From the NCBI GenBank assembly GCA_963767925.1, contig CAVYGB010000010.1, forward strand, positions 1 to 64,000: DNA of 64,000 bases, in the 5' to 3' direction. Positions 22,749 to 53,386 of the stretch are shown one piece after another. The DNA comes from an uncultured delta proteobacterium (GTDB lineage: Bacteria; Myxococcota_A; Polyangia; Fen-1088). The stretch's first letter is position 1. Every line of letters begins with the position of its first letter. The notes under the pieces were generated by a model. That model was not told the DNA's origin. It made no database searches and saw only the letters and a program-made list of their open reading frames with translations. The position numbers and the translations under genes are program-made.

Positions 22749-23042
22749 CTAGCCCGACTTGATGGCGGTCGAGACGACCAGGAACAGCCCCAGCCCCACC
22801 CAGAGGATCCCGAAGGTCAGGTGGCGCTTGTAGCCGCCCCCCGACGATCGGGACCAGCCCCCGCCGGTGGACCCCGACCCGGCCTCCTGCTCGTCCAGCC
22901 CCTCCCCGTCCGTCTCCTCCGTCATTTCCGGCCGTGGCTTCTGCCGCCAGCCGAGGAACACCGCCCGCAGCGCGCCGAACACGATGAGGACGATCCCCAC
23001 CCCATAAAACAGCGCCGGCGGCAGCACGATGTCCATGCCCAT
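22749..23042 (-). CDS. small two-TM membrane protein
   Basis: Two hydrophobic helices flanking an acidic/Gly loop; coding-like GC3. Confidence 0.6.
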   Translation of the reverse strand: MGMDIVLPPALFYGVGIVLIVFGALRAVFLGWRQKPRPEMTEETDGEGLDEQEAGSGSTGGGWSRSSGGGYKRHLTFGILWVGLGLFLVVSTAIKSG

Positions 23043-23266: not shown

Positions 23267-25996
23267 TCAGTACCGGTAGTTCATCCCGAGGCGGACGCGG
23301 AAGGGGCCCTGGCGGCCGCTGCCCCGGCCGAAGGTCGGGCCGTCGTTCTGGGTCACCGCGGTCACCGTGCGGGTGGCCAGCACGTTGATCACGTCGGTGA
23401 ACAGCTCGAGCCGGTGACCGATGAAGGGCAGCAGGTTCACCCGGGCCTGCAGGTTGAAGCTCATCAGGTCGGGCAGCCGCAGGTCCCGGTCGTCGGTCGG
23501 GTCGTTGATGTTGGTGCCGGGGTTGATGCCCAGCCGGGCCCGGTAGTCCTCGAAGTCGCCGGTGACCGGGTTGCGGAACAGGCGGTTGTAGGGCGTCCCC
23601 GAGCGGTAGCTGTAGCGGATGCCGGTGGTCAGCCAGTTGGTGAACCGGAAGGTCGACAGGGCCTTGACCTCGTGGCGGCGGTCGTCGCCGAGGTAGCCCC
23701 ACAGGTAGATGTCCTGACCGGGGTTGTCGCCGTAGTCGCCCGCGGCCCCCTCGAGGCGGCTCCAGGTGTAAGAGGCCTGCACCCGGAAGCGGCCCTCGCG
23801 CTTGCGCACGCCGAAGGTGGTGCCGAGGTAGTTGCGCTTGGCCCAGTCCGGGGTGCCGAGGTCGCTGACGTCCTGGTTGCGGCCGTTGCGGAAGGCCCCC
23901 CCGACGTCCAGCGCGGTCCCTGATTGGTTCCAGCGGCGGTTGGTCTCCCGGGTGTCGAACTGGTTGCGGAAGGCCCGGTAGATGCCGTCGAGCGCCAGGG
24001 CGAGGCCGGGCAAGACCTCCCGCTCGACGCCGAGGGTGAGCTCGTGGGTGCGGGGGATCTTCAGCTTCTCCCGACAGCTATTGCCGTTGGCGTCGAAGCC
24101 GGTCGATCCGCAGGGCAGGCCGATCGTGCTCCGGCTGGACCCGCCGGCGTAGGTGCAGTTGCGGTCGAACTCCTGGCTGGTGGCGTTCCACTCGCAGTCC
24201 TGGCTCACCCGGCTGCCGATGCTGTGCTGGGCGAAGCGCTTGATGTCGACGTCGGCGTAGGAGCTGTAGCTCGAGCGGAGCACGGTGCGCCCGTCGTGGG
24301 TGGCGTCCCAGGCCGCCGAGAGGGCGGGCACGAAGGCCCCGGTGCGGAAGCCCTCCAGGCCGTTGCTGTTGAGCGACTTGCCCCAGATGTGCGACAGCGC
24401 CGGGCTCACCGTCAGGTAACGGGTCACCCGGTAGGCGTCGCTGATGGTCCCCACGTGGCGCATCCAGTTGACCTCCCGGATGTACCAGCCGTAGCGGGCC
24501 TCCGAGACGCGGGGATCGTTGGAGTAGTAGGTGATCTTGGCCTGGGGCGCGCTGGTGCCGTCGTATTCGATGATCGAATCGTTGGGGGTGGAGGTCATCT
24601 CGACGTCGCGCTCGCTGAACACCGTGCTCTGCAGCTTGATGTTGTGCTCACCGAGCCGCTTGCTGTCGAGGAACCAGTCCAGTCGGTTGACGAACTGGAC
24701 GTGGAAGGCGTCGTTGCGGGTGTGCTCCTCGTTGTTGCCCCACTCTTGCGCTCGGGGGAACGACTGGCGGATCGGCTGGATGTAGTCGCAGGAGACCGGC
24801 TGGTCGATGCAGCTCTCGGGGAAGATGTGCTCGCCGAAGTAGGTGATGCCACCCTGGCTGCGGATGACCACGCTGTCGCTCAGCAGCGACTCCCAGATGA
24901 GGCCGGTGAACAGACGGCGTCCCAGCCGCCGCTCCTGGGCCTCCGGCTCGACGCCGGCGCCCCCCTTGCGGTTGTACTCCCGGGCGGCGTCGAAGTTCGA
25001 CAGGCTGGTCAGCTTGTTCCGGCGGCTGATCTGCCAGGTCAGCTTGAAGGTGCCCTTGGGGATCAACTTGGTGAAGGGCTCGCGCTGATTGAAGATCCCC
25101 TCCGAGTCCCAGGCCCGGTTCTCCCGGATGATGTGCCCCTCGGCGTTGAAGAAGAACCAGAGCTTGTCCTTGACGATGGGCCCGGCCACCGTGGGGTTGA
25201 GGGCGTAATAATATTCGGCCGTCGCGGGGTCACCCTCGTCCCGGAAGAACTGCAGCCGGTTGCTGTCCATGGTGGCGTTGAACTCGAACTCGTATTTGTT
25301 CGAGCCCGACTTGGTCACCAGGTTGACCGAGGCGCCCGGCGAGGCGGGGGCGTCGGCGCCGTGCCCGCCGGTCATGATCTCGTAGGCCGCCGACGTCTTG
25401 GTGGTCGGCTGCTGATCGCGCATGTCGAACCCGTCCTGGGTGAACGTGGTCTGCGCGCTCGTCCCACCGCGCACGCTGCGTCCGTTGGCCCCCGCCACCA
25501 TGCCGATGAGCTGGTTGTGCGGCTGGTCCCGGTTGTCGAGGGGCATCGACTCGATCATGTCGAGGTCGATGGTCTCCTTGAGGGCGGTCGAGCGGGTGTT
25601 GACGATGGGCGCCCGCTCCACGACCGCGATCTCCTCGGTCGCGGTCTCGACCTCCATGATGACGTTGACGTCGGTGGGGGCCGACACGCCAACGTTGATC
25701 CCCTTGACCACCACCTGCCGCAGCTTGGGCGCGCTGGCCCGCAGCTCGAACTGGCCGGGGTGCAGGGCGGGGAAGCGGAAGCCTCCCTCGTCGTTGCTGT
25801 AGGCGTTCTTGGCGCCGCCGATCTGGGTATCCGAGCTGACGGTGACCTTGATCCCTTTCAGGGGCATCCCCGCTTGGTCGAGGACCATCCCGACGATGGA
25901 TCCACTTTGCCCCGCTTGGGCCAGGACCGGTTTCGAGTTGGTAACGGCCAGAAGTCCAACAATCGAGATCGCGAACGCTAAGCGCTGCATTTGCAT
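23267..25996 (-). CDS. Oar-like TonB-dependent receptor with N-terminal carboxypeptidase-regulatory-like domain
   Basis: Signal peptide; GSIVGMVLD..G.PL.G..VTV; NLVTKSGSN; GPIVKDKLWFF; C-terminal RLGMNYRY. Confidence 0.88.
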   Translation of the reverse strand: MQMQRLAFAISIVGLLAVTNSKPVLAQAGQSGSIVGMVLDQAGMPLKGIKVTVSSDTQIGGAKNAYSNDEGGFRFPALHPGQFELRASAPKLRQVVVKGINVGVSAPTDVNVIMEVETATEEIAVVERAPIVNTRSTALKETIDLDMIESMPLDNRDQPHNQLIGMVAGANGRSVRGGTSAQTTFTQDGFDMRDQQPTTKTSAAYEIMTGGHGADAPASPGASVNLVTKSGSNKYEFEFNATMDSNRLQFFRDEGDPATAEYYYALNPTVAGPIVKDKLWFFFNAEGHIIRENRAWDSEGIFNQREPFTKLIPKGTFKLTWQISRRNKLTSLSNFDAAREYNRKGGAGVEPEAQERRLGRRLFTGLIWESLLSDSVVIRSQGGITYFGEHIFPESCIDQPVSCDYIQPIRQSFPRAQEWGNNEEHTRNDAFHVQFVNRLDWFLDSKRLGEHNIKLQSTVFSERDVEMTSTPNDSIIEYDGTSAPQAKITYYSNDPRVSEARYGWYIREVNWMRHVGTISDAYRVTRYLTVSPALSHIWGKSLNSNGLEGFRTGAFVPALSAAWDATHDGRTVLRSSYSSYADVDIKRFAQHSIGSRVSQDCEWNATSQEFDRNCTYAGGSSRSTIGLPCGSTGFDANGNSCREKLKIPRTHELTLGVEREVLPGLALALDGIYRAFRNQFDTRETNRRWNQSGTALDVGGAFRNGRNQDVSDLGTPDWAKRNYLGTTFGVRKREGRFRVQASYTWSRLEGAAGDYGDNPGQDIYLWGYLGDDRRHEVKALSTFRFTNWLTTGIRYSYRSGTPYNRLFRNPVTGDFEDYRARLGINPGTNINDPTDDRDLRLPDLMSFNLQARVNLLPFIGHRLELFTDVINVLATRTVTAVTQNDGPTFGRGSGRQGPFRVRLGMNYRY

Positions 25997-26174
25997 AGGC
26001 ACCCCCTATTCGCCGGACGCAGTTTTACAACTTTTCGACATAAAAACGAATAGCTGTCTTACACAACGAAACACACAATGCGTAAACTCGCTGTGGCGAC
26101 TCGCGAAAAAGTTAGGTCAAAAAGAACGTTCTCACTATTGAACGCTCTACAAATACGAGGGTTCTCGCCGGCCG

Positions 26175-27748
26175 CTATGCGCCGGTGCGAGCGACGGCGC
26201 GCAGCTCGCGGATGACTGTGACGCGGATCTGCCCGGGGAAAGTCAGGCGCTTGGATATGGCCTGCGCGATCGCCGTTGACAGATCCACCGTCGCTCTATC
26301 GTCCAGCTCGTCGTCGCGCACGAGCACCCGAACCTCGCGGCCGCCGTGCAGCGCGAAGGCCTCGGCCACCCCGGGAAACTCCCGGCTGATCCGCTCGAGG
26401 TCCGCGATCCGGTGCAGGTAGTTCTCCTCGCTGTGGCGGCGGGCACCGGGCCGCGCCCCCGACAGGGCGTCGGCCGCCGCGCACAGGTGCGCGTAGGGGC
26501 TGGCGCAGGGCTCGTCGGCGTGGTGGGCGCCGATGGCGTTGGCCACCAGCTCGGCCTCGCCCAGCCGGCGCGCGCGATCGGCGCCGATGACGGCATGCCC
26601 GCCGTCGAGCTCGTGGGTGAGCGCCTTGCCGATGTCGTGCAGGAGCGCCGCCCGCCGGGCCAGGCCCCGGTCGAGGTTCAGCTCCTCGGCCATCATGCCG
26701 CACAGGAAGGCCGCCTCGACCGCGTGTTTCCACTGGTTCTGGGTGAAGCTGGTGCGCCAGTTGAGGCGGCCGACAAGCCGCACGATCTCCGGGTGGGCGG
26801 GCTCGAGCTCCAGCCGGGCGAAGGCCCGCTGGCCCAGCTCGAGGACCTCCTGCTCCAGCTCGGCCGCCACCTCGGCCGCCGCCCGCGCCACCGCGGTGCC
26901 GCCGCCCCCGACGGCCCCCGCCAGCAGCCGCGTCAGGGTCCGCCGGGCGACCTCCCGCGCCACCCCGTCGAGCCCCTCGACGCGGACGGCGTCGCCCGCC
27001 TCGGCGAGCAGCAGCTTCACCCCCGCGGCGGCCTCGAGGGCCTGCAGCTCCCCGGGCGTGACCGCCGGGTGGCCGTCGCTCGGCGGGCCCAGCGGCACCA
27101 GGGACTGCCCGCGCTCGGTCAGATCGTGCGTCGACAGCCGGCCAGCCGCGATCCCCAGGAGCCGGCCCGCCCGGCGGCCCACCTCGGGCAGACCGTCGCC
27201 CTCGCCCGGCCGGGACGTCCGGGCCGCCTCGGCCTGCGCGCGCTCCACCTCCAGCGCGGCCAGCGCCGACCGGAGGCTCGCGGCCCGCGCGCCGCCCACC
27301 CGCTCGAGCCGGGACCGGGCCTCGGCCACCGCCTCCGCCTCCATCTGCGCGTGACGCCCCCGCTCGGCCTCCCGTCCGGACAGCGCCCCCTCCCGCTCGC
27401 GCAGCCGCTGTCGGGCCGCCGCCAGCTCGACGGCGCCCGCCCGCAGCTGGATCTGCCGCGCCGACAGCTCACCCGCCCGCCGGGCCAGCTGCGCCTGGGC
27501 GGCCGCGGCCTCCCGCTCGATCTCCGCCTGCCGGGCCAGCGCCTGCTCCCGGGCCACCAGCTCGGCCGCGCCCTGCCGCGCCTGGGCCGACAGACGCCCC
27601 TGCTGCAGCACGCGCCCGGCCCGCCGGGCCAGCGCGGCCAGGCCGACCCGGACGGCGGCCCGCCGCCACGCCCGGCCGACCAGCGCGCCGACCAGGCCCC
27701 CCAGCGCCGCGCCGAGCACGCCGAGGACCAGCGCGGCGGAGGCAGACA

Positions 27749-27749
<1 letters not shown>
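26175..27749 (-). CDS. RNase Y-like HD-domain protein with degenerate KH domain
   Basis: N-terminal TM plus coiled coil; GRLNWRTSFTQN..KH, RAALLHDIGKA, IGAHH, ADALSGARPGARR, GREVRV, FPGQIRVTVIRE; no GRIIGREG loop. Confidence 0.82.
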
Positions 27750-38194
<10,445 letters not shown>

Positions 38195-38339
38195 TTGTTC
38201 CTCCGGGCTGTCTGCGTCGTCGCGGGCCGATTCTCCGACCTCCTGGCGTGACCCCGTTCGTCCGGCAAGGAGCCGGGCGGCGCAGACTTCCGTGGGGCGG
38301 CCAGTAAGTAGGCGAAAAGCGTCGAGAAAAAGGTGAAAT

Positions 38340-38369
38340 TTTATACCACGTGCGGGTCTTCACCCTCAA
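38340..38369 (-). promoter_or_regulatory. sigma70-type promoter for gltI
   Basis: TTGAGG-18 nt-TATAAA with extended -10 TG. Confidence 0.55.
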
Positions 38370-38463
38370 CCGCCACAGCGCGTACAGAAGGGCTCATCGG
38401 ACCATCAATCGACGGATTCAGCCCGTCTCCGGAGAGGAAACCGGAGGACAGACGGCCAGCACG

Positions 38464-38500
38464 AAAAAAAGCCGAGACCCCACCTCCGGGTGTCTCGGCT
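38464..38500 (-). terminator. Rho-independent terminator ending the gltC-G/TPR operon
   Basis: AGCCGAGAC-loop-GTCTCGGCT followed by a T run on the minus strand. Confidence 0.85.
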
Positions 38501-38554
38501 CTTCCGGCGGGATCGCCGGCCTGTATCCGCTGTGGGTGTGTCGACCAGAGAGGC

Positions 38555-39442
38555 CTACGAACCGCTCAGGGCGTACAGCTTGTCGTTGGCCGCCTTGACG
38601 TAGCCGAAGCCGCCTTCCTTGGCGCCGGCGTTGCTGACGTATTTCTGCAGGTACTCGCGGGCCCGCTCCTTGTGGTCGTTGGCCCGGCTCTGCTCGTACC
38701 AGTCGGCATAGGTCATGCCAGCGTTGTAGACGGCGGTGGTCAGCCCCGGCTCGAGCTCGAGGGCCCGCTTGAACTGGGTCGTCGCCTGGTCGAACTGGCG
38801 GAGATCCTTGAGGGCCAGGCCCCAGCCGTTGAAGCACTCCGAGCTGTGCTCGTTGGCCCGCACGCACTCGGAGAACACCTGGGATGCCTCCTTGGCGGCG
38901 TCGTAGTCCAGGTAGAGGTGCCCGAGGTCGACGAAGGGCTTGTCCAGGCGGGCGTTGGCCTCGATGGCCTTCCGCAGGGCGACGTCCGCCTCCTTGGGCC
39001 GCTCGAGGCGGATGTAGACCTGGCCCAGGCGCCAGTTGGCCTTGAACAGCTTGCTGTCGAGCTCGACCGCCTTGCGGAGCGCCCCCTCGGCCTTGTCGAG
39101 CTGGCGGGCCTCGAAATAGGCCTCTCCCAGGTCATAGAAGTAGCTGGCGTTGCTGGGCGCCCGCTGGGTGGCCGACTCGAAGGCCTCGATGGCTTTGTCC
39201 CACTTGCGCTGCTTCTGGTACACCTTGCCGAGGTTGAAGTGGGCGATGTCGTAGGCGGGGTCGGTCTGGATGGCGAGCTTGAGCTGTTGCTCGGCCGTGT
39301 CGTAGAGGCCCGTGTTGGCCGCCTCGGTCCCCTTGTTGGAAAAGTTCATCGCCTTGATCCGCTCCTGACTGCAGACGAAGGCGTCGCAGGCGGACATCGA
39401 CAGGGCGATCGCGAGGAGAGTCCTCAGGCTGTTTGCGGTCAT
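38555..39442 (-). CDS. TPR lipoprotein in the glt cluster
   Basis: LAIALSMSA-C lipobox; ~6 TPRs (AHFNLGKVY, YFYDLGEAY, AVYNAGMTY); GGAGG SD. Confidence 0.82.
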   Translation of the reverse strand: MTANSLRTLLAIALSMSACDAFVCSQERIKAMNFSNKGTEAANTGLYDTAEQQLKLAIQTDPAYDIAHFNLGKVYQKQRKWDKAIEAFESATQRAPSNASYFYDLGEAYFEARQLDKAEGALRKAVELDSKLFKANWRLGQVYIRLERPKEADVALRKAIEANARLDKPFVDLGHLYLDYDAAKEASQVFSECVRANEHSSECFNGWGLALKDLRQFDQATTQFKRALELEPGLTTAVYNAGMTYADWYEQSRANDHKERAREYLQKYVSNAGAKEGGFGYVKAANDKLYALSGS

Positions 39443-39468
39443 GCTTGCGCCTCCAGGTACCTCGCCGC

Positions 39469-41703
39469 TCACTCGCCAGCGCCGCCGGCGGGCGTGAAGT
39501 TGAACGGATAGGTGACGATGACGATACCGCCGCCGAGGGGCTTGGGGAACTCCCAACGACGCACGGCCTGCACCACGCAGTTCTCGACCCGGGCGTTGCC
39601 CATGGTGGAGTTCTGCAGCACCGACGCCACCACCTGACCGGTCGCGGCGATGGTGAACTGGACCGCGACCCGTCCGCCGAGCTCCGGCTTGCGGGTGAGC
39701 TCCTGCTCGTAGCAGTACTTCACCTCGTTGATGTGCCGCCGGATGATGCGGCGGATGATCTCCTTGTCGAGCGAGCCGCGCACGTTGGCCTGCCCGGGCA
39801 TGACCTCGGGCGCCCGCGCCCGACGCCCACCCAGCCCGCCGGCGCCCCGGCCGTAGCCCGAGCCGCTGCCGCCGCCGCCCCCCTTGCCGATGGTGCCGAG
39901 GTTGCCGAGGCCGATGGTGCCCTCGCCGGTGCCGCCGCCGCCGGCGCCGGTGCCGACCAGGCCCAGGCCGCCGATGCCGTAGGCCTCGCCGATCTGGTTG
40001 CCGATCAGGCCGCCGAGGACGTTCTCCGGGTCGCTGCCCAGGGCGGTGTCACGCCCGAAGATCGAGGCGATGTGCGACCCCTCGGCCATCTTGAGGACGC
40101 CCAGGATGCCGGCGTTCTTGACCTCTTCCTCGGCCAGCTTCTTGGCCAGGTGGGGATCGATGTTGTCCTTGGGACCCTGGAGACCGTAAAGACCCTTCTT
40201 CTTGTCGGAGGTCTTCTTCCCCATCTTCCCTTCGTCGTCCTTGTGACGCTTGCCCTTGCCCCCCTGCTCGTCGGCCCCGCTCTTCTTGAGCCACTCCGGG
40301 ATCTCCTCTTCCTTCTCCTCGGGCGGCTTGATGAGGAAGTTCACGAAGCGGTTGTCGGAGTTGAAGAGATCGAGCGAGAGGGACTTGGGGTCGGGCGGGA
40401 CGGAGAAGATCATCAGCAGGAACAGGAGGATCGCGATGGCCGATCCCACGGTGTAGACCTGCTCGTTCCACTTCCAGATGAGGAAGGGGGTGGCCAGCGT
40501 GCGCGGCCGCGGGGTCGAGGAGATGTTGAAGGTCGTCTCCCCGGCGTCGATGCGCGCGCGTCCACCCTGGGGCAGCGAGAAGCTGGGGCCTCGCTGCTGC
40601 ACGAACTGGGCGAGTGGAATCGCCCGTCCGTCGGCGTTCACCTCGCCGGTCATGGCCGGGGTGACGTTGACCACCAGCTCGCGCCCCGAGCCCTTGACGA
40701 GGGTGTGGGCGGCACCGCCGGTGAACTCGTTCGCCACCGGGGCGTCGGCGCTGGGATCGGCCCCGATGATGTAGTCGTGGTGCTTCTCGTGCCGGCGCTT
40801 GAGCCCCATGTACACGAGGCTCAGGCCCAGGGCCCAGCCCAGGAACACGACGACGTCGACGGCCGGGCTGCGTGGCTTCCAGTTGAAGGCCCGCGCCTCC
40901 TTGTTGGCGGCGAGGTGGGCGTCGTAGGCGATCCTCTCGCCGCCCACGTCCTGAACGGTGTAAACGAAGGCTCCGAGGGCCACGAGGATGGCGAGGATGC
41001 CCGCCGCGAGCATGCCGCGGGCCTGGCCGGACAGGGCCTTGGCCCCGGCGTCGTAGAGGTGCCTCGTGTTGACCACCACGCCGCGGAACATGGCCTGAAC
41101 CTCGAGCGCGCTCGAGCCGTCGAGCTCCTCAACCTCGGCCGCCATGGCCGAGGGGGCGCTGGGGGGCGGCGAGGACCAGGAGCCCGCCGTGGCCGAGGGG
41201 GGAGACGGCGGGGGGATCGGGGGAGGCGCGGCCGCGTAGCTGGGGATCTGCCCGGTGGACGGCGGCGGCTGGTAGCCCGGGATGGGGGCGGTTCCGGTGA
41301 AGGAGACCGGCGGAGGGGCGGCGCTGGGCCGGGCCGCCGGCTGGGCGGCGGCGGCAGCCGACACGTGGGGCGCCACGACGGTGGACTCTTCCTCCTCGAG
41401 GAAGGTCACGAGCACCCGGATGTCTCCGAAGTTGATCTCGTCGCCCGAGCGCAGGCGGACCTTCGTGATCCGCTCCCCGTTGACCAGCGTGCCCCGGGTC
41501 GACCCGAGATCGATGAGCTGGACGTCGTCGCCGCCATTGACCTCGACCACCGCGTGCATGCGCGAGACGGAGTCGTCGTCGATGCGCAGGTGGGAGGAGG
41601 CCAGCTTGCCGACCTTGATGACCGGCTCGTTGATCACTTCCTCTTTGAGGAGCTCGTCCCCTTTCCAGAGCTCGAACTTGAGGGGTAGGTTCGCGTTCGC
41701 CAT
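39469..41703 (-). CDS. gltG: gliding motility protein GltG/PglI (FHA-TM-TonB_C-like)
   Basis: FHA VSRMHA..DLGSTRGT.VNG; TM segments; Gly-rich linker; GSLDKEIIRRIIRRH..VKYCYE..WEFPKP.GGG.V.VTYPF. Confidence 0.9.
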   Translation of the reverse strand: MANANLPLKFELWKGDELLKEEVINEPVIKVGKLASSHLRIDDDSVSRMHAVVEVNGGDDVQLIDLGSTRGTLVNGERITKVRLRSGDEINFGDIRVLVTFLEEEESTVVAPHVSAAAAAQPAARPSAAPPPVSFTGTAPIPGYQPPPSTGQIPSYAAAPPPIPPPSPPSATAGSWSSPPPSAPSAMAAEVEELDGSSALEVQAMFRGVVVNTRHLYDAGAKALSGQARGMLAAGILAILVALGAFVYTVQDVGGERIAYDAHLAANKEARAFNWKPRSPAVDVVVFLGWALGLSLVYMGLKRRHEKHHDYIIGADPSADAPVANEFTGGAAHTLVKGSGRELVVNVTPAMTGEVNADGRAIPLAQFVQQRGPSFSLPQGGRARIDAGETTFNISSTPRPRTLATPFLIWKWNEQVYTVGSAIAILLFLLMIFSVPPDPKSLSLDLFNSDNRFVNFLIKPPEEKEEEIPEWLKKSGADEQGGKGKRHKDDEGKMGKKTSDKKKGLYGLQGPKDNIDPHLAKKLAEEEVKNAGILGVLKMAEGSHIASIFGRDTALGSDPENVLGGLIGNQIGEAYGIGGLGLVGTGAGGGGTGEGTIGLGNLGTIGKGGGGGSGSGYGRGAGGLGGRRARAPEVMPGQANVRGSLDKEIIRRIIRRHINEVKYCYEQELTRKPELGGRVAVQFTIAATGQVVASVLQNSTMGNARVENCVVQAVRRWEFPKPLGGGIVIVTYPFNFTPAGGAGE

Positions 41704-50882: not shown

Positions 50883-51290
50883 CTAGGAGGCGGCCGCGGC
50901 CGGCCGGGGGACGGCCGCTTTCTTCGCGGGCTCGGTCACGCGCAGCTCACCCTTGATCCGGGCGGCCTTGCCTTCCAGCGCGCGCAGGTAGTTGAGGCGG
51001 GCGCGGCGAACGCGGCCCTTGGCCACCACCTCGACCTTGTCGATGCGGGTGCTGTGCAGCGGGAAGATCCTCTCGACGCCGACGCCGTAGGAGATCTTGC
51101 GCACGGTGAAGGAGGCGCGGGAGCCGCCGACGCGGCGGTCGATCACCACGCCCTCGAACACCTGGACGCGCTCCTTGTCGCCTTCCTTGATGAGCGTGTG
51201 AACCTTCACAGTGTCTCCCGGCCGGAAGCCGGGCAGATCTTTGCGGAGGAAAGTGGCTTCGATTTCGCGAATCAGGGGGTGCTGGCTCAT
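50883..51290 (-). CDS. rplS: 50S ribosomal protein L19
   Basis: [52 protein letters not shown]. Confidence 0.97.
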
Positions 51291-51384
51291 GGCGACAGGC
51301 TCCGGTACGGAGGGTCGTATTAACTACGCGTAACTGGCGGCGGAGTCAATGGTTCTCCCGCGACCCGGGCTCTTGACGCCGCCC

Positions 51385-52227
51385 CTAGCGGTCAGGTCCG
51401 TCCCCGTGGTTCTTATCGTGGACTTGCCCTTCGTCTTGCCCGTCCTCTTGCCCGTCCTCTTGCCCGGCCTCCCGCGGCTCGGGGGTGGGGACCTCCCGGC
51501 CGAGGAGCTTCGTCTCCTGGGGATCGGGGGGATGGGCGGCCAGCAGGTCGGGGCGGCGGTCGCGGGTCCGGCGCAGCGACTGCTGCCGGCGCCAGGCGGC
51601 GATGGCGGCGTGATCGCCCGAGAGCAGGACCTCGGGGACGACCTGCCCCCGGAACTCGGGCGGGCGGGTGTAGTGGGGGTATTCGAGGCGGCCCCGGGCC
51701 GAGAAGGACTCCTCCTCGGTGGAGGCGCACTTGCCCAGCACCCCGGGCAGCAGGCGGGCCACCGCCTCGATGATCACCGCGGCGGCCAGCTCCCCGCCGG
51801 CCAGGACGTAGTCGCCGATGCTGACCACGTCGTGGGCAAACAGGGTCGCGATCCGTTCGTCGATCCCCTCGTAGCGGCCGCAGATCAGGAGCAGGCGGGG
51901 CCGGGTCACCATCTCGGCGGCCAGCGCCTGCGAGAACAGGCGGCCCTGCGGCGACAGCAGCACCCGGTGGGTGGGCCCGCGCGCCGCCTCGATCTGCTCG
52001 ATGGTCGCCGCCAGGGGCTCGGGCCGCAGCACCATCCCCGGCCCGCCGCCGTAGGGCGCGTCGTCGACCGAGCGGTGGCGGCCCAGGCCGTTGTCGCGGG
52101 GGTTGCTCCGGGTGACGGCGATCAGCCCCCCCTCGACGGCCTTGCCGAGCAGGCTGGCCGACAGGAACGAGTCGAACAGCTCGGGAAACAGGGTGACCAG
52201 CTCGAAGTGCAGCCGGGCTTCACTCAT
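51385..52227 (-). CDS. trmD: tRNA (guanine37-N1)-methyltransferase
   Basis: VTLFPE, VDDAPYGGGPGMV, CGRYEGIDER, SIGDYVLAGGE, YPHYTRP, VPEVLLSGDH. Confidence 0.96.
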   Translation of the reverse strand: MSEARLHFELVTLFPELFDSFLSASLLGKAVEGGLIAVTRSNPRDNGLGRHRSVDDAPYGGGPGMVLRPEPLAATIEQIEAARGPTHRVLLSPQGRLFSQALAAEMVTRPRLLLICGRYEGIDERIATLFAHDVVSIGDYVLAGGELAAAVIIEAVARLLPGVLGKCASTEEESFSARGRLEYPHYTRPPEFRGQVVPEVLLSGDHAAIAAWRRQQSLRRTRDRRPDLLAAHPPDPQETKLLGREVPTPEPREAGQEDGQEDGQDEGQVHDKNHGDGPDR

Positions 52228-52735
52228 GGGGGTCGATCACGATCCGGCGCCCCACCAGATCGACGCTGGTCAGGAACTCGGGCACCGCCGGGATCAGCAA
52301 CTCCTTGCCGGCGTCGTCGAGCACCGAGAGGACGTCGTGGCCACCGTTCCAGAACAGGGCGGCCACCCGGCCCCGGCTCTGACCGGCGAGATCGAACACG
52401 GCGCACCCGACCAGGTCGTCCACGTAGTGTTCGCCCTCCTCCAGGGGAGGCAATTCGGCGCGGGCCACCGAGACCTCGAAGCCCGTCAGACCGGCGGCGG
52501 CGTCGCGGTCGGCGATCCCCTCCATGCGGACCAGGGCCCCATCCTGGAAGGGACGCGCGCTGGCCACCGTGGATGCGCGGCGTTCGTTGCCCCGGCGCAG
52601 CTCGACAACCAGGGGGAGCTCCAGCTCGGGGAGCTGGACGCCGTCGGGGTTGAAGGCGCGAAAGACCAGCTCGCCCCGCACGCCGTGTGGCCGCCCGAGC
52701 ACGCCGAGCACCACCCTGTCCCGCTCTTCGGCCAC
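52220..52735 (-). CDS. rimM: 16S rRNA processing protein RimM
   Basis: GRPHGVRGE, LPPLEEGEHYVDDLVG, LLIP; between khpA and trmD. Confidence 0.93.
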   Translation of the reverse strand: MAEERDRVVLGVLGRPHGVRGELVFRAFNPDGVQLPELELPLVVELRRGNERRASTVASARPFQDGALVRMEGIADRDAAAGLTGFEVSVARAELPPLEEGEHYVDDLVGCAVFDLAGQSRGRVAALFWNGGHDVLSVLDDAGKELLIPAVPEFLTSVDLVGRRIVIDPHE

Positions 52736-52832
52736 GGTCCGGTTCGTCGTCGCGGCGGGGGCCGTCAGAGCGGCCCCGGGCGCTCCCGCGACGGGCTCGG
52801 GCGAGGCAGGCTCGCCTTCGCCAGGGCGGTCA

Positions 52833-53129
52833 TTACTCGATGATCTCGAGGATGGCGCGGCGGCGCATCTTCGCCGAGGCAGCGGACAGCACGGTCCGCA
52901 GCGCCTTGGCGGTCCGGCCCTGGCGGCCGATCACGCGGCCCAGATCGGACTCGGCGACCTTCAGCTCGTAGACCAGCGCGTCCGGCTCCTCGATCTCCTG
53001 GACCTCCACCTGATCCGGATGCTCCACGAGCGATCGGGCGAGGTAGAGCACCAGCTCCCGCAGGGGCGGTGCTTTCCCTTCGCTGGTACCCGCCTGGGAC
53101 GGAGGAGAACCCTCGGTCAAGGGGTTCAC
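52833..53129 (-). CDS. khpA: KH-domain RNA-binding protein KhpA
   Basis: [21 protein letters not shown] start overlapping the rpsP stop (GTGA). Confidence 0.9.
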
Positions 53130-53386
53130 GCGGGAGTTGACGGAGTCGCGCGGCGGAGTCGGTGAATCAGCTCGCTCACGGTCTGGCTGGGCTGGGCACC
53201 GACGGAGATCCAATGATCGACGCGCGCCGTATTGAGCTTGACCTCCGCGGGATTGCGCAGAGGGTCATAGATGCCGAGCTGCTCGATGAAGCGGCCATCG
53301 CGCGGACTGCGGCTGTCGGCGGCCACGACGCGGTAGAAGGGAGACTTCTTGCCGCCAGCGCGAGTGAGACGGAGGGTTACGGCCAT
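53126..53386 (-). CDS. rpsP: 30S ribosomal protein S16
   Basis: [32 protein letters not shown]...W..GAQPS.TV. Confidence 0.97.

Follow-up and report, generated by a model that had tools for sequence, protein, structure and literature searches.

The usual picture of RNase Y is of an enzyme present in one copy that relies on its KH domain and sets off mRNA decay, and the gene described here, rnyL, encodes a relative of it in which the RNA-binding loop of the KH domain has been replaced. The gene lies on the minus strand of a 64,000-nucleotide stretch of DNA from an uncultured delta proteobacterium of the Polyangia (the whole stretch is called the window below), directly after the gene for a GltI-like gliding protein. 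Sequence comparisons indicate that it belongs to a family of KH-degenerate RNase Y paralogues that is real, long kept and undescribed in the literature searched. On balance we think it probable, if well short of certain, that rnyL is a member of an old clade of such paralogues, that its product is a membrane-tethered HD phosphodiesterase and in the likeliest case an endoribonuclease, and that one family captured the gene into its glt operon. The full-text literature searched (subscription journals and supplements lay outside the search) described neither a KH-less RNase Y paralogue nor an RNase Y in Glt clusters, and the terms 'RNase' and 'ribonuclease' did not occur in the available text of two Glt papers (PMC3169522 and PMC11761067).

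Architecture of rnyL and the loss of its KH loop

The gene and the parts of its product are as follows, with the evidence for each in brackets.

26175..27749, minus strand: rnyL coding sequence, a KH-degenerate RNase Y paralogue of 524 amino acids (open reading frame and translation; TIGR03319; GC content at third codon positions, GC3)
27666..27749, minus strand: N-terminal hydrophobic membrane anchor, residues 1-28 (hydrophobic sequence at residues 3-25; continuous AlphaFold helix from residue 3)
27126..27665, minus strand: long helical or coiled-coil region, residues 29-208 (Pfam RNase_Y_N; AlphaFold helices at 3-152, 156-178 and 186-208)
26910..27110, minus strand: KH-like domain without the GxxG loop, residues 214-280 (AlphaFold elements; VIA-align)
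27054..27092, minus strand: proline-rich loop PPSDGHPAVTPGE, residues 220-232, where canonical copies have helix alpha1 and the GxxG turn (alignments)
26430..26795, minus strand: HD (HDIG) metal-dependent phosphohydrolase domain, residues 319-440 (Pfam HD; TIGR00277; invariant residues)
26190..26429, minus strand: RNase Y C-terminal alpha/beta domain, residues 441-520, ending in GQIRVTVIRE (end of the TIGR03319 match; shared conserved positions)

Each part of the RNase Y architecture that a sequence-only reading of the window had listed was found, namely the anchor, the helical region, the HD residues and the C-terminal GQIRVTVIRE. The order of these parts (membrane helix, RNase_Y_N, KH position, HD/HDIG, C-terminal domain) is that of RNase Y (Rny/CvfA; TIGR03319; Bacillus subtilis, Staphylococcus aureus), whose anchor is likewise N-terminal in the available text of PMC11261784, and whose domain order and GxxG loop are described in the available parts of PMC11261784 and PMC11321564. 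The TIGR03319 RNase_Y model aligned over its positions 6-511 of 514 to residues 16-520 of rnyL, Pfam RNase_Y_N matched residues 12-204 with 33 bits (cut-off 32) and Pfam HD residues 341-430 with 65 bits, and the NCBIfam HDIG model TIGR00277 scored 66.8 bits. Judged as an RNase Y, then, rnyL has the membrane anchor with the helical region, the metal-binding HD residues (H...HD...H...HH...D) and the C-terminal domain, but its TIGR03319 score of 367 bits (366.5 in the genome search) lies under the curated equivalog cut-off of 454.35 and the GxxG loop between alpha1 and alpha2 of the KH domain is missing. No Pfam KH family matched rnyL at E<=0.01, and a sequence search of solved structures with rnyL gave 0 matches at E<=0.001.

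The replacement of the KH loop, which the sequence-only reading had also proposed, was borne out by alignment with the canonical RNase Y of the same genome, in which the canonical SDDMKGRIIGREGRNIR stands opposite PPSDGHPAVTPGE-LQ of rnyL with a 4-residue gap and GxxG is gone. In an AlphaFold2 model of rnyL (mean predicted local distance difference test score, pLDDT, of 84.5; 100-sequence alignment) the KH position consists of a strand at 217-219, a loop at 220-231, a helix at 232-242, strands at 245-248 and 254-258 and a helix at 262-276. The canonical control model (pLDDT 83.2; 39 sequences) has a strand at 213-217, a helix at 222-228, a break, a helix at 230-242, strands at 245-247 and 254-258 and a helix at 262-278. 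Set side by side, the two models suggest that rnyL has neither helix alpha1 nor the GxxG-bearing turn, and that a KH-like fold is otherwise retained, which answers the earlier proposal to model this domain (AlphaFold, VIA-align). By VIA-align, residues 213-299 match exosome Rrp4-type KH domains (2z0s_A, Z 9.6, root-mean-square deviation (rmsd) 3.0, 84 residues aligned), with further KH matches to 8xie_G (Z 9.2) and 2ba0_A (Z 9.1); the HD domain matches HD hydrolases with Z 11-12 (8ie2_H, 2pq7_A and RNase YhaM, 9h3f_A), and the C-terminal domain matches the ferredoxin-like C-terminal domain of MamM (5hsp_A, Z 10.9, rmsd 1.7, 73 aligned). Foldseek with the whole rnyL model found no match in the PDB at E<=0.001.

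A score below the curated cut-off and a KH region that is shorter and proline-rich are features that a decaying duplicate of rny, or an assembly or frameshift artefact of it, might also present, and a compensating double frameshift had been raised beforehand as a possible origin of the KH loss. The annotated rnyL frame keeps a GC3 of 0.80-1.00 along the gene and of 0.90-1.00 across the KH-loop region, while the remaining two reading frames encode nothing KH-like across that region; because of this, and because GxxG is likewise gone from 43 of 43 paralogues, we rule the double frameshift out. Decay or artefact in any form seems to us extremely improbable for a gene with an intact frame (GC3 0.9-1.0), with orthologues of the same architecture in dozens of genomes and a subtree that matches families, with an HD domain more conserved than that of canonical copies, and with a separate canonical rny present.

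Distribution, phylogeny and constraint of the paralogue

The source genome (G000; 9.3 Mb, 13 contigs, 84% complete) gave TIGR03319 matches at two places, one of them rnyL at 366.5 bits and the other at positions 1430-2938 of contig C13 at 603 bits, above the cut-off. The latter is the separate canonical rny that the sequence-only reading had suggested looking for; it occupies C13:1373-2941, encodes 522 amino acids and is 39% identical to rnyL.

Paralogue and canonical copies were gathered from three sources, which were a search of relatives, a 301-genome sample of the phylum and a collection of species-representative genomes. Among the relatives, 38 of 41 genomes had an RNase Y match, as did 22 of the 24 genomes of the same family, and the latter mostly carry two copies, one 50-62% and one 37-39% identical to rnyL. 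At E<=1e-30, RNase Y matches turned up in 118 genomes of the phylum sample and in none of the other 183, whole families among them, and RNase Y is therefore patchy in Myxococcota. A copy below the TIGR03319 cut-off was present in 24 of the 301 genomes (23 full length, 1 partial) with a canonical copy alongside in 23, and these copies span several families, the class of the window and at least one other class. The KH-degenerate clade as a whole reaches at least three further families of the window's class and families of other classes. Metagenome proteins contributed more than 100 close relatives of rnyL, none of which has a precomputed KH Pfam hit, and their annotation disagrees between 'ribonuclease Y' (JGI) and 'HDIG domain-containing' or 'Rnase Y domain-containing' (NCBI; metagenome-assembled genomes (MAGs) of Polyangia or Deltaproteobacteria). 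The closest genome loci in the species-representative collection all come from uncultured Polyangia or Myxococcales MAGs.

An alignment of 82 Myxococcota sequences divides sharply at the KH loop, with GxxG absent from 43 of 43 sub-cut-off copies and retained in 39 of 39 canonical copies, all of which keep KGR[IL]IG[RK]EGRNIR. The degeneration varies within the family, such that some members keep I-G-R-D at the loop position and the subgroup of the window has the shorter, proline-rich version. Maximum-likelihood trees (quick search, single-matrix LG+G4 model) part the paralogues from the canonical set by a single branch, with a Shimodaira-Hasegawa-like approximate likelihood-ratio (SH-aLRT) support of 99 in the 81-row tree that has no outgroups and again in the 87-row tree that adds six outgroup sequences from Planctomycetota, Nitrospiria and others. 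With outgroups, 42 paralogues form one clade inside the Myxococcota RNase Y radiation, and the grouping within their subtree matches families, the window's family being one group of 13 with support 98-99. The tree does not fix the point of duplication because its deep branches are short. Compared with RNase Y proper, rnyL differs in scoring below the curated cut-off, in belonging to a separate clade and in being present beside a canonical copy.

Constraint is distributed differently over the two types of protein, as seen from mean pairwise identities among eight genomes of the window's family that contributed both copies:

First half of KH: paralogues 0.50, canonical copies 0.88
Second half of KH: paralogues 0.63, canonical copies 0.94
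HD domain: paralogues 0.87, canonical copies 0.74
C-terminal domain: paralogues 0.70, canonical copies 0.80

The helical region of the same-family paralogues has a mean pairwise identity of 0.32, lowest after the membrane anchor. When lost positions are defined as those conserved in at least 90% of canonical copies and kept by at most 30% of paralogues, 23 fall in the KH domain and 8 in the KH-HD linker (31 canonical-conserved positions that, together with alpha1 and the GxxG turn, set rnyL apart from RNase Y), against 2 in the HD domain and 1 each in the C-terminal domain and the coil. Conserved positions common to both types number 39 in the HD domain and 13 in the C-terminal domain, and 2 conserved HD positions are specific to the paralogues. 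Invariant in 43 of 43 paralogues are H342, H371, D372, K375, H385, H409, H410, D427 and the motif S-G-x-R-P-G-A-R, and in the second half of the KH-like domain R-L-E-G-L-D-G-V-G-R-E is nearly invariant in 100 close relatives.

A conserved HD domain beside an eroded KH domain and linker fits an enzyme that has kept its chemistry while its KH-mediated grip on the substrate was changed or lost, and is at odds with gene decay or with a role as mere scaffold. With the HD active-site residues unchanged in all 43 paralogues, the pure scaffold that the sequence-only reading had offered as one option is unlikely. Going by this conservation of the HD site, rnyL would still be a membrane-tethered, metal-dependent HD phosphodiesterase and would most likely act as an endoribonuclease, its choice of substrate freed from the canonical KH groove. 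Such freedom might take the form of narrower or different RNA targets, or of RNA handed over by a partner protein.

The same pattern can be turned toward a different substrate, in that rnyL may have ceased to be a ribonuclease and its HD domain may hydrolyse a small nucleotide at the membrane (a cyclic di-nucleotide, pApA/nanoRNA, (p)ppGpp or Np4A). The clade-wide loss of the GxxG turn and alpha1, together with an HD domain more constrained than in canonical RNase Y, is consistent with this, and the HD domain superposes on YqeK (8wmy_B, Z 9.4), PgpH (4s1b_A, Z 9.2), PPX/GppA (6pc0_A, Z 9.0) and HD-GYP (4mcw_A, Z 7.8), although similarity of HD folds is uninformative on substrate. PgpH (c-di-AMP) and YqeK (Np4A) are, like rnyL, membrane-associated HD hydrolases; unlike them, rnyL has no 7-transmembrane sensor domain, its whole architecture and sequence are RNase Y-like, and its sequence matches these families only through the generic HD/HDIG domain. 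Canonical RNase Y moreover shares with rnyL its HD residues, the motif S-G-x-R-P-G-A-R and its C-terminal domain (39 + 13 positions), the active site, with only 2 paralogue-specific conserved positions in the HD domain, shows no sign of a change of substrate, and the KH-shaped domain was kept rather than deleted. We accordingly regard a small-nucleotide hydrolase as improbable.

Linkage to gltI and other genomic contexts

The following features border rnyL in the window.

27749..38194, minus strand: gltI-like giant gene for a tetratricopeptide repeat (TPR) protein of 3481 amino acids with a conserved non-TPR C-terminal domain (Pfam, context)
27747..27751, minus strand: TGATG in which the stop of the gltI-like gene overlaps the rnyL start (sequence)
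26119..26148, minus strand: terminator-like hairpin with a 9-bp stem and a U run behind it, in an AT-rich spacer about 30 nucleotides past the rnyL stop
23267..26002, minus strand: outer-membrane beta-barrel gene, 911 amino acids, CarboxypepD_reg and OMP_b-brl_4 domains, between rnyL and the small gene below
22749..23042, minus strand: gene for a small protein of 97 amino acids with two transmembrane helices (2-TM), without a Pfam family (tblastn match at 22770-23036)

The TGATG overlap between the gltI stop and the rnyL start is present as first reported (27751-27747), the ATG of rnyL (27749-27747) and the TGA of the gltI-like gene (27751-27749) having one base in common. No start codon precedes this ATG in the open frame, and the N-terminal hydrophobic helix starts from residue 3. 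From the overlap, rnyL would be co-translated from a gltI promoter; a scan of 25800-28800 for consensus promoters and terminators gave 0 sites. Among sequencing runs listed for 25900-28900 there was no RNA run, and three DNA metagenome runs contained small shares of it. The hairpin downstream of rnyL was found by folding and was not listed by the consensus terminator scan; the RNA of 26095-26180 on the minus strand has a folding energy of -29.4 kcal/mol, with z -3.6, a stability reached by 0 of 200 shuffles. If it forms as predicted, it would stop the glt transcript ahead of the inserted outer-membrane protein gene. A tblastn search for that gene in related loci gave 0 of 20, and it therefore looks like an insertion into the operon tail.

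Within the window's family, 13 of 13 loci have a gltI-like orthologue (56-73% identical; tblastn with the last 900 residues) that ends immediately before the paralogue, and the GltI C-terminus lies upstream in 29 of 32 close-clade species-representative loci, the 3 misses having <=104 nucleotides of upstream DNA; these are not independent events, because the two sets of loci overlap (several are the same contigs) and the relatives are kin. In 12 of the 13 same-family loci 0-60 nucleotides separate the gltI stop from the likely rnyL start, and in the remaining one 179 nucleotides do. On the other side, the 2-TM gene stands just after rnyL in 37 of 45 same-family loci (tblastn with the small open reading frames that follow gltI in G006 and G013). 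These two genomes, which represent two genera of the window's family and are 100% and 97% complete, gave no match at E<=1e-10 to the canonical or the paralogue type of RNase Y, and in them gltI is followed directly by the 2-TM gene. The small reading frame after gltI in G006 and G013 was also considered as a remnant of rnyL and rejected, as it is a separate 2-TM gene that also follows rnyL in relatives. In the other-family loci tblastn found the 2-TM gene in 0 of 13, which is weak evidence for so short a protein. The 2-TM protein itself (22749-23042(-) in the window; also L159:3221-3463(-) and L160:2468-2803(+)) has about 80-110 amino acids and two membrane helices. Its gene closes the gltI operon as a conserved feature of the window's family, and the Glt cluster may have in it an accessory that has gone unrecognised.

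Outside this family the linkage disappears, one genome (G036) apart. gltI was near the paralogue in 0 of 7 other-family loci of the window's class and in 0 of 20 further loci, and in 5 of 5 genomes of another class gltI and the paralogue lie on different contigs, such that the paralogue is not a gene encoded in glt clusters across Glt-bearing Myxococcota. The gltI-like gene itself is widespread, with a match to the GltI C-terminal-domain model in 41 of 41 relatives and gltI-like frames of 3300-4100 amino acids in families across the class, and also in all five genomes of that second class. The synteny of gltI and rnyL that had been proposed for testing across Myxococcota thus held in the window's family and was absent at 27 of 27 loci of other families. 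In these the paralogue keeps other company: the genes for IscS, NifU, IscA, HscB and HscA follow it at L029, L030, L032 and 4 of 5 loci of family f19 (isc-adjacent loci as listed are L029, L030, L031, L032, L073, L074, L077 and L078). At L031 the paralogue comes after PdxS/PdxT, overlapping the end of pdxT by 4 nucleotides, and before iscA, and at L032 it overlaps an upstream FAD-linked oxidase gene by 4 nucleotides. The isc context of the paralogue in other families might tell more of its function than gltI does. As far as gene order goes, the linkage to gltI belongs to a lineage-specific operon and does not define the paralogue. We suggest that one uncultured Polyangia family took rnyL into the tail of its glt operon, where the order is gltI, rnyL, 2-TM gene, so that it would be co-expressed with the gliding machinery, often by stop/start coupling.

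The sequence-only reading had gone further and called rnyL a paralogue dedicated to gliding. The three checks by which it proposed to refute itself, on a second rny, on conserved linkage and on a frameshift, each turned out at least partly in favour of it. A paralogue it is, and one linked to gltI in one family, but dedication exceeds the evidence given the 0 of 27 loci elsewhere, the isc and pdx contexts and the two genomes G006 and G013. As a dedicated Agl-Glt component of the window's family, rnyL might anchor or dock on GltI through its KH-like domain, or act as a localised nuclease on glt or motility transcripts. The stop/start overlap, the adjacency at 13 of 13 loci and at 29 of 29 with enough upstream DNA, the position between gltI and a conserved 2-TM gene, the near-invariant R-L-E-G-L-D-G-V-G-R-E, the neighbouring GltI C-terminal domain with its 82% column identity and the paralogue found 2.6 kb downstream of gltI in a genome of another family (G036) all agree with such a role. 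The clade is, however, older than the linkage, its other-family loci (27 of 27) lie away from gltI though a gltI-like gene is in the genome, the paralogue sits in isc or pdx operons elsewhere, and G006 and G013 keep gltI and the 2-TM gene without an RNase Y match at E<=1e-10; the invariant HD site argues against a pure scaffold, and RNase Y is unmentioned in the Glt papers searched. We consider a dedicated component unlikely, and a gliding-specific reading overall stands at about that level or slightly below. The most explicit form, in which rnyL was recruited into the gliding apparatus, docks by its remodelled KH domain on the GltI C-terminal domain or the 2-TM protein and acts at focal adhesion complexes, is a little more doubtful still; if true, this would be the first case of a bacterial surface-motility machine that incorporates an enzyme of RNA or nucleotide metabolism.

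Several observations weigh against our preferred reading of rnyL as an old, KH-degenerate and probably ribonucleolytic paralogue that was captured secondarily by a glt operon, and the kinship of the linked loci is one of them. The linkage is invariant in the window's family wherever upstream DNA suffices, with rnyL between gltI and the conserved 2-TM gene, and the divergent paralogue of G036 lies on the same strand as its gltI; a family-specific, Glt-related role may therefore exist. Three genomes (G032, 91% complete; G035, 74%; G316, 87%) carry the paralogue type alone, and either the canonical copy was missed by assembly or the paralogue can serve alone. The quick search, the single-matrix model and the short deep branches limit the tree. 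The nuclease activity of clade members is inferred solely from conservation of the HD site, and loss of GxxG could abolish RNA binding entirely, in which case the substrate would be a small nucleotide.

The glt cluster and the meaning of the paralogue

Upstream of the gltI-like gene lie a GltC-like gene (297 bits), a gene for a 1209-amino-acid TPR protein in the GltD position, and GltE-like (103 bits), CglF/GltF-like (86.8 bits, cut-off 90) and GltG-like (418 bits) genes, all four of the scored matches being under their equivalog cut-offs; with these gltC- to gltG-like genes the window therefore holds a Glt-type gliding cluster. The label 'gltI' is reasonable by context, resting on size, TPR content, the C-terminal domain and gene order. 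Pfam TPR families extend as far as about residue 2990 of the gltI-like protein, and its C-terminal 490 amino acids have a mean column identity of 82% across 28 orthologues. A search with this domain, covering proteins of 859-2450 amino acids, gave only the name 'tetratricopeptide repeat protein'. GltI of M. xanthus is, in the available parts of PMC3169522 and PMC11761067, a cytoplasmic TPR protein of 3822-4132 amino acids with a helical C-terminal domain.

That M. xanthus has gltJ after gltI, as the sequence-only reading had stated, agrees with the gene table in the available text of PMC3169522, which gives MXAN_4863 gltI and then MXAN_4862 gltJ. Like GltJ (AgmX), rnyL takes the slot directly after gltI (PMC3169522, in the same part) and combines one membrane helix with a cytoplasmic part, GltJ being an inner-membrane protein in the portions available of PMC11761067 and PMC11135422; rnyL has no sequence relation to GltJ. 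Two GltJ-like open reading frames exist in the genome itself, C8:2307928-2311113 (L055:88-1854(-)) and C8:1062343-1065489 (L058:1501-3147(+)), with an N-terminal MJ0042-type zinc ribbon and an AgmX/PglI C-terminal tail and with scores of 102 and 67 bits (cut-off 450). Both are on contig 8, distant from the glt cluster of the window, and because they exist elsewhere in the genome rnyL is not simply a stand-in for GltJ. The idea that rnyL replaces GltJ was set aside on these grounds and on the varied genes called after gltI in 11 other-family loci, which were not scanned with the GltJ model.

Two further observations concern the surroundings of the cluster. Between the gltG-like and gltI-like genes (gap 38194-39469) there is a 333-amino-acid TPR open reading frame at 38555-39556 on the minus strand, where M. 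xanthus has the beta-barrel gene gltH, and gene calling based on GC3 chose neither of the overlapping reading frames in this gap. A ribosomal operon at 50883-53213 on the minus strand (KH-domain protein, rimM, trmD, rplS) borders the glt cluster upstream.

The glt operon of one family, with rnyL at a fixed place in it, gives a testable lead on whether gliding is tied to the turnover of RNA or nucleotides, with the caution that the same gene sits in Fe-S cluster operons of sister families. For RNase Y more broadly, the clade is a second, long-kept lineage that discarded the RNA-binding loop while its catalytic centre was retained under even tighter constraint, and so it offers a natural experiment on the part that the KH domain plays in RNase Y. 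For the Myxococcota, it suggests a specialised RNA-processing enzyme or a new nucleotide hydrolase.

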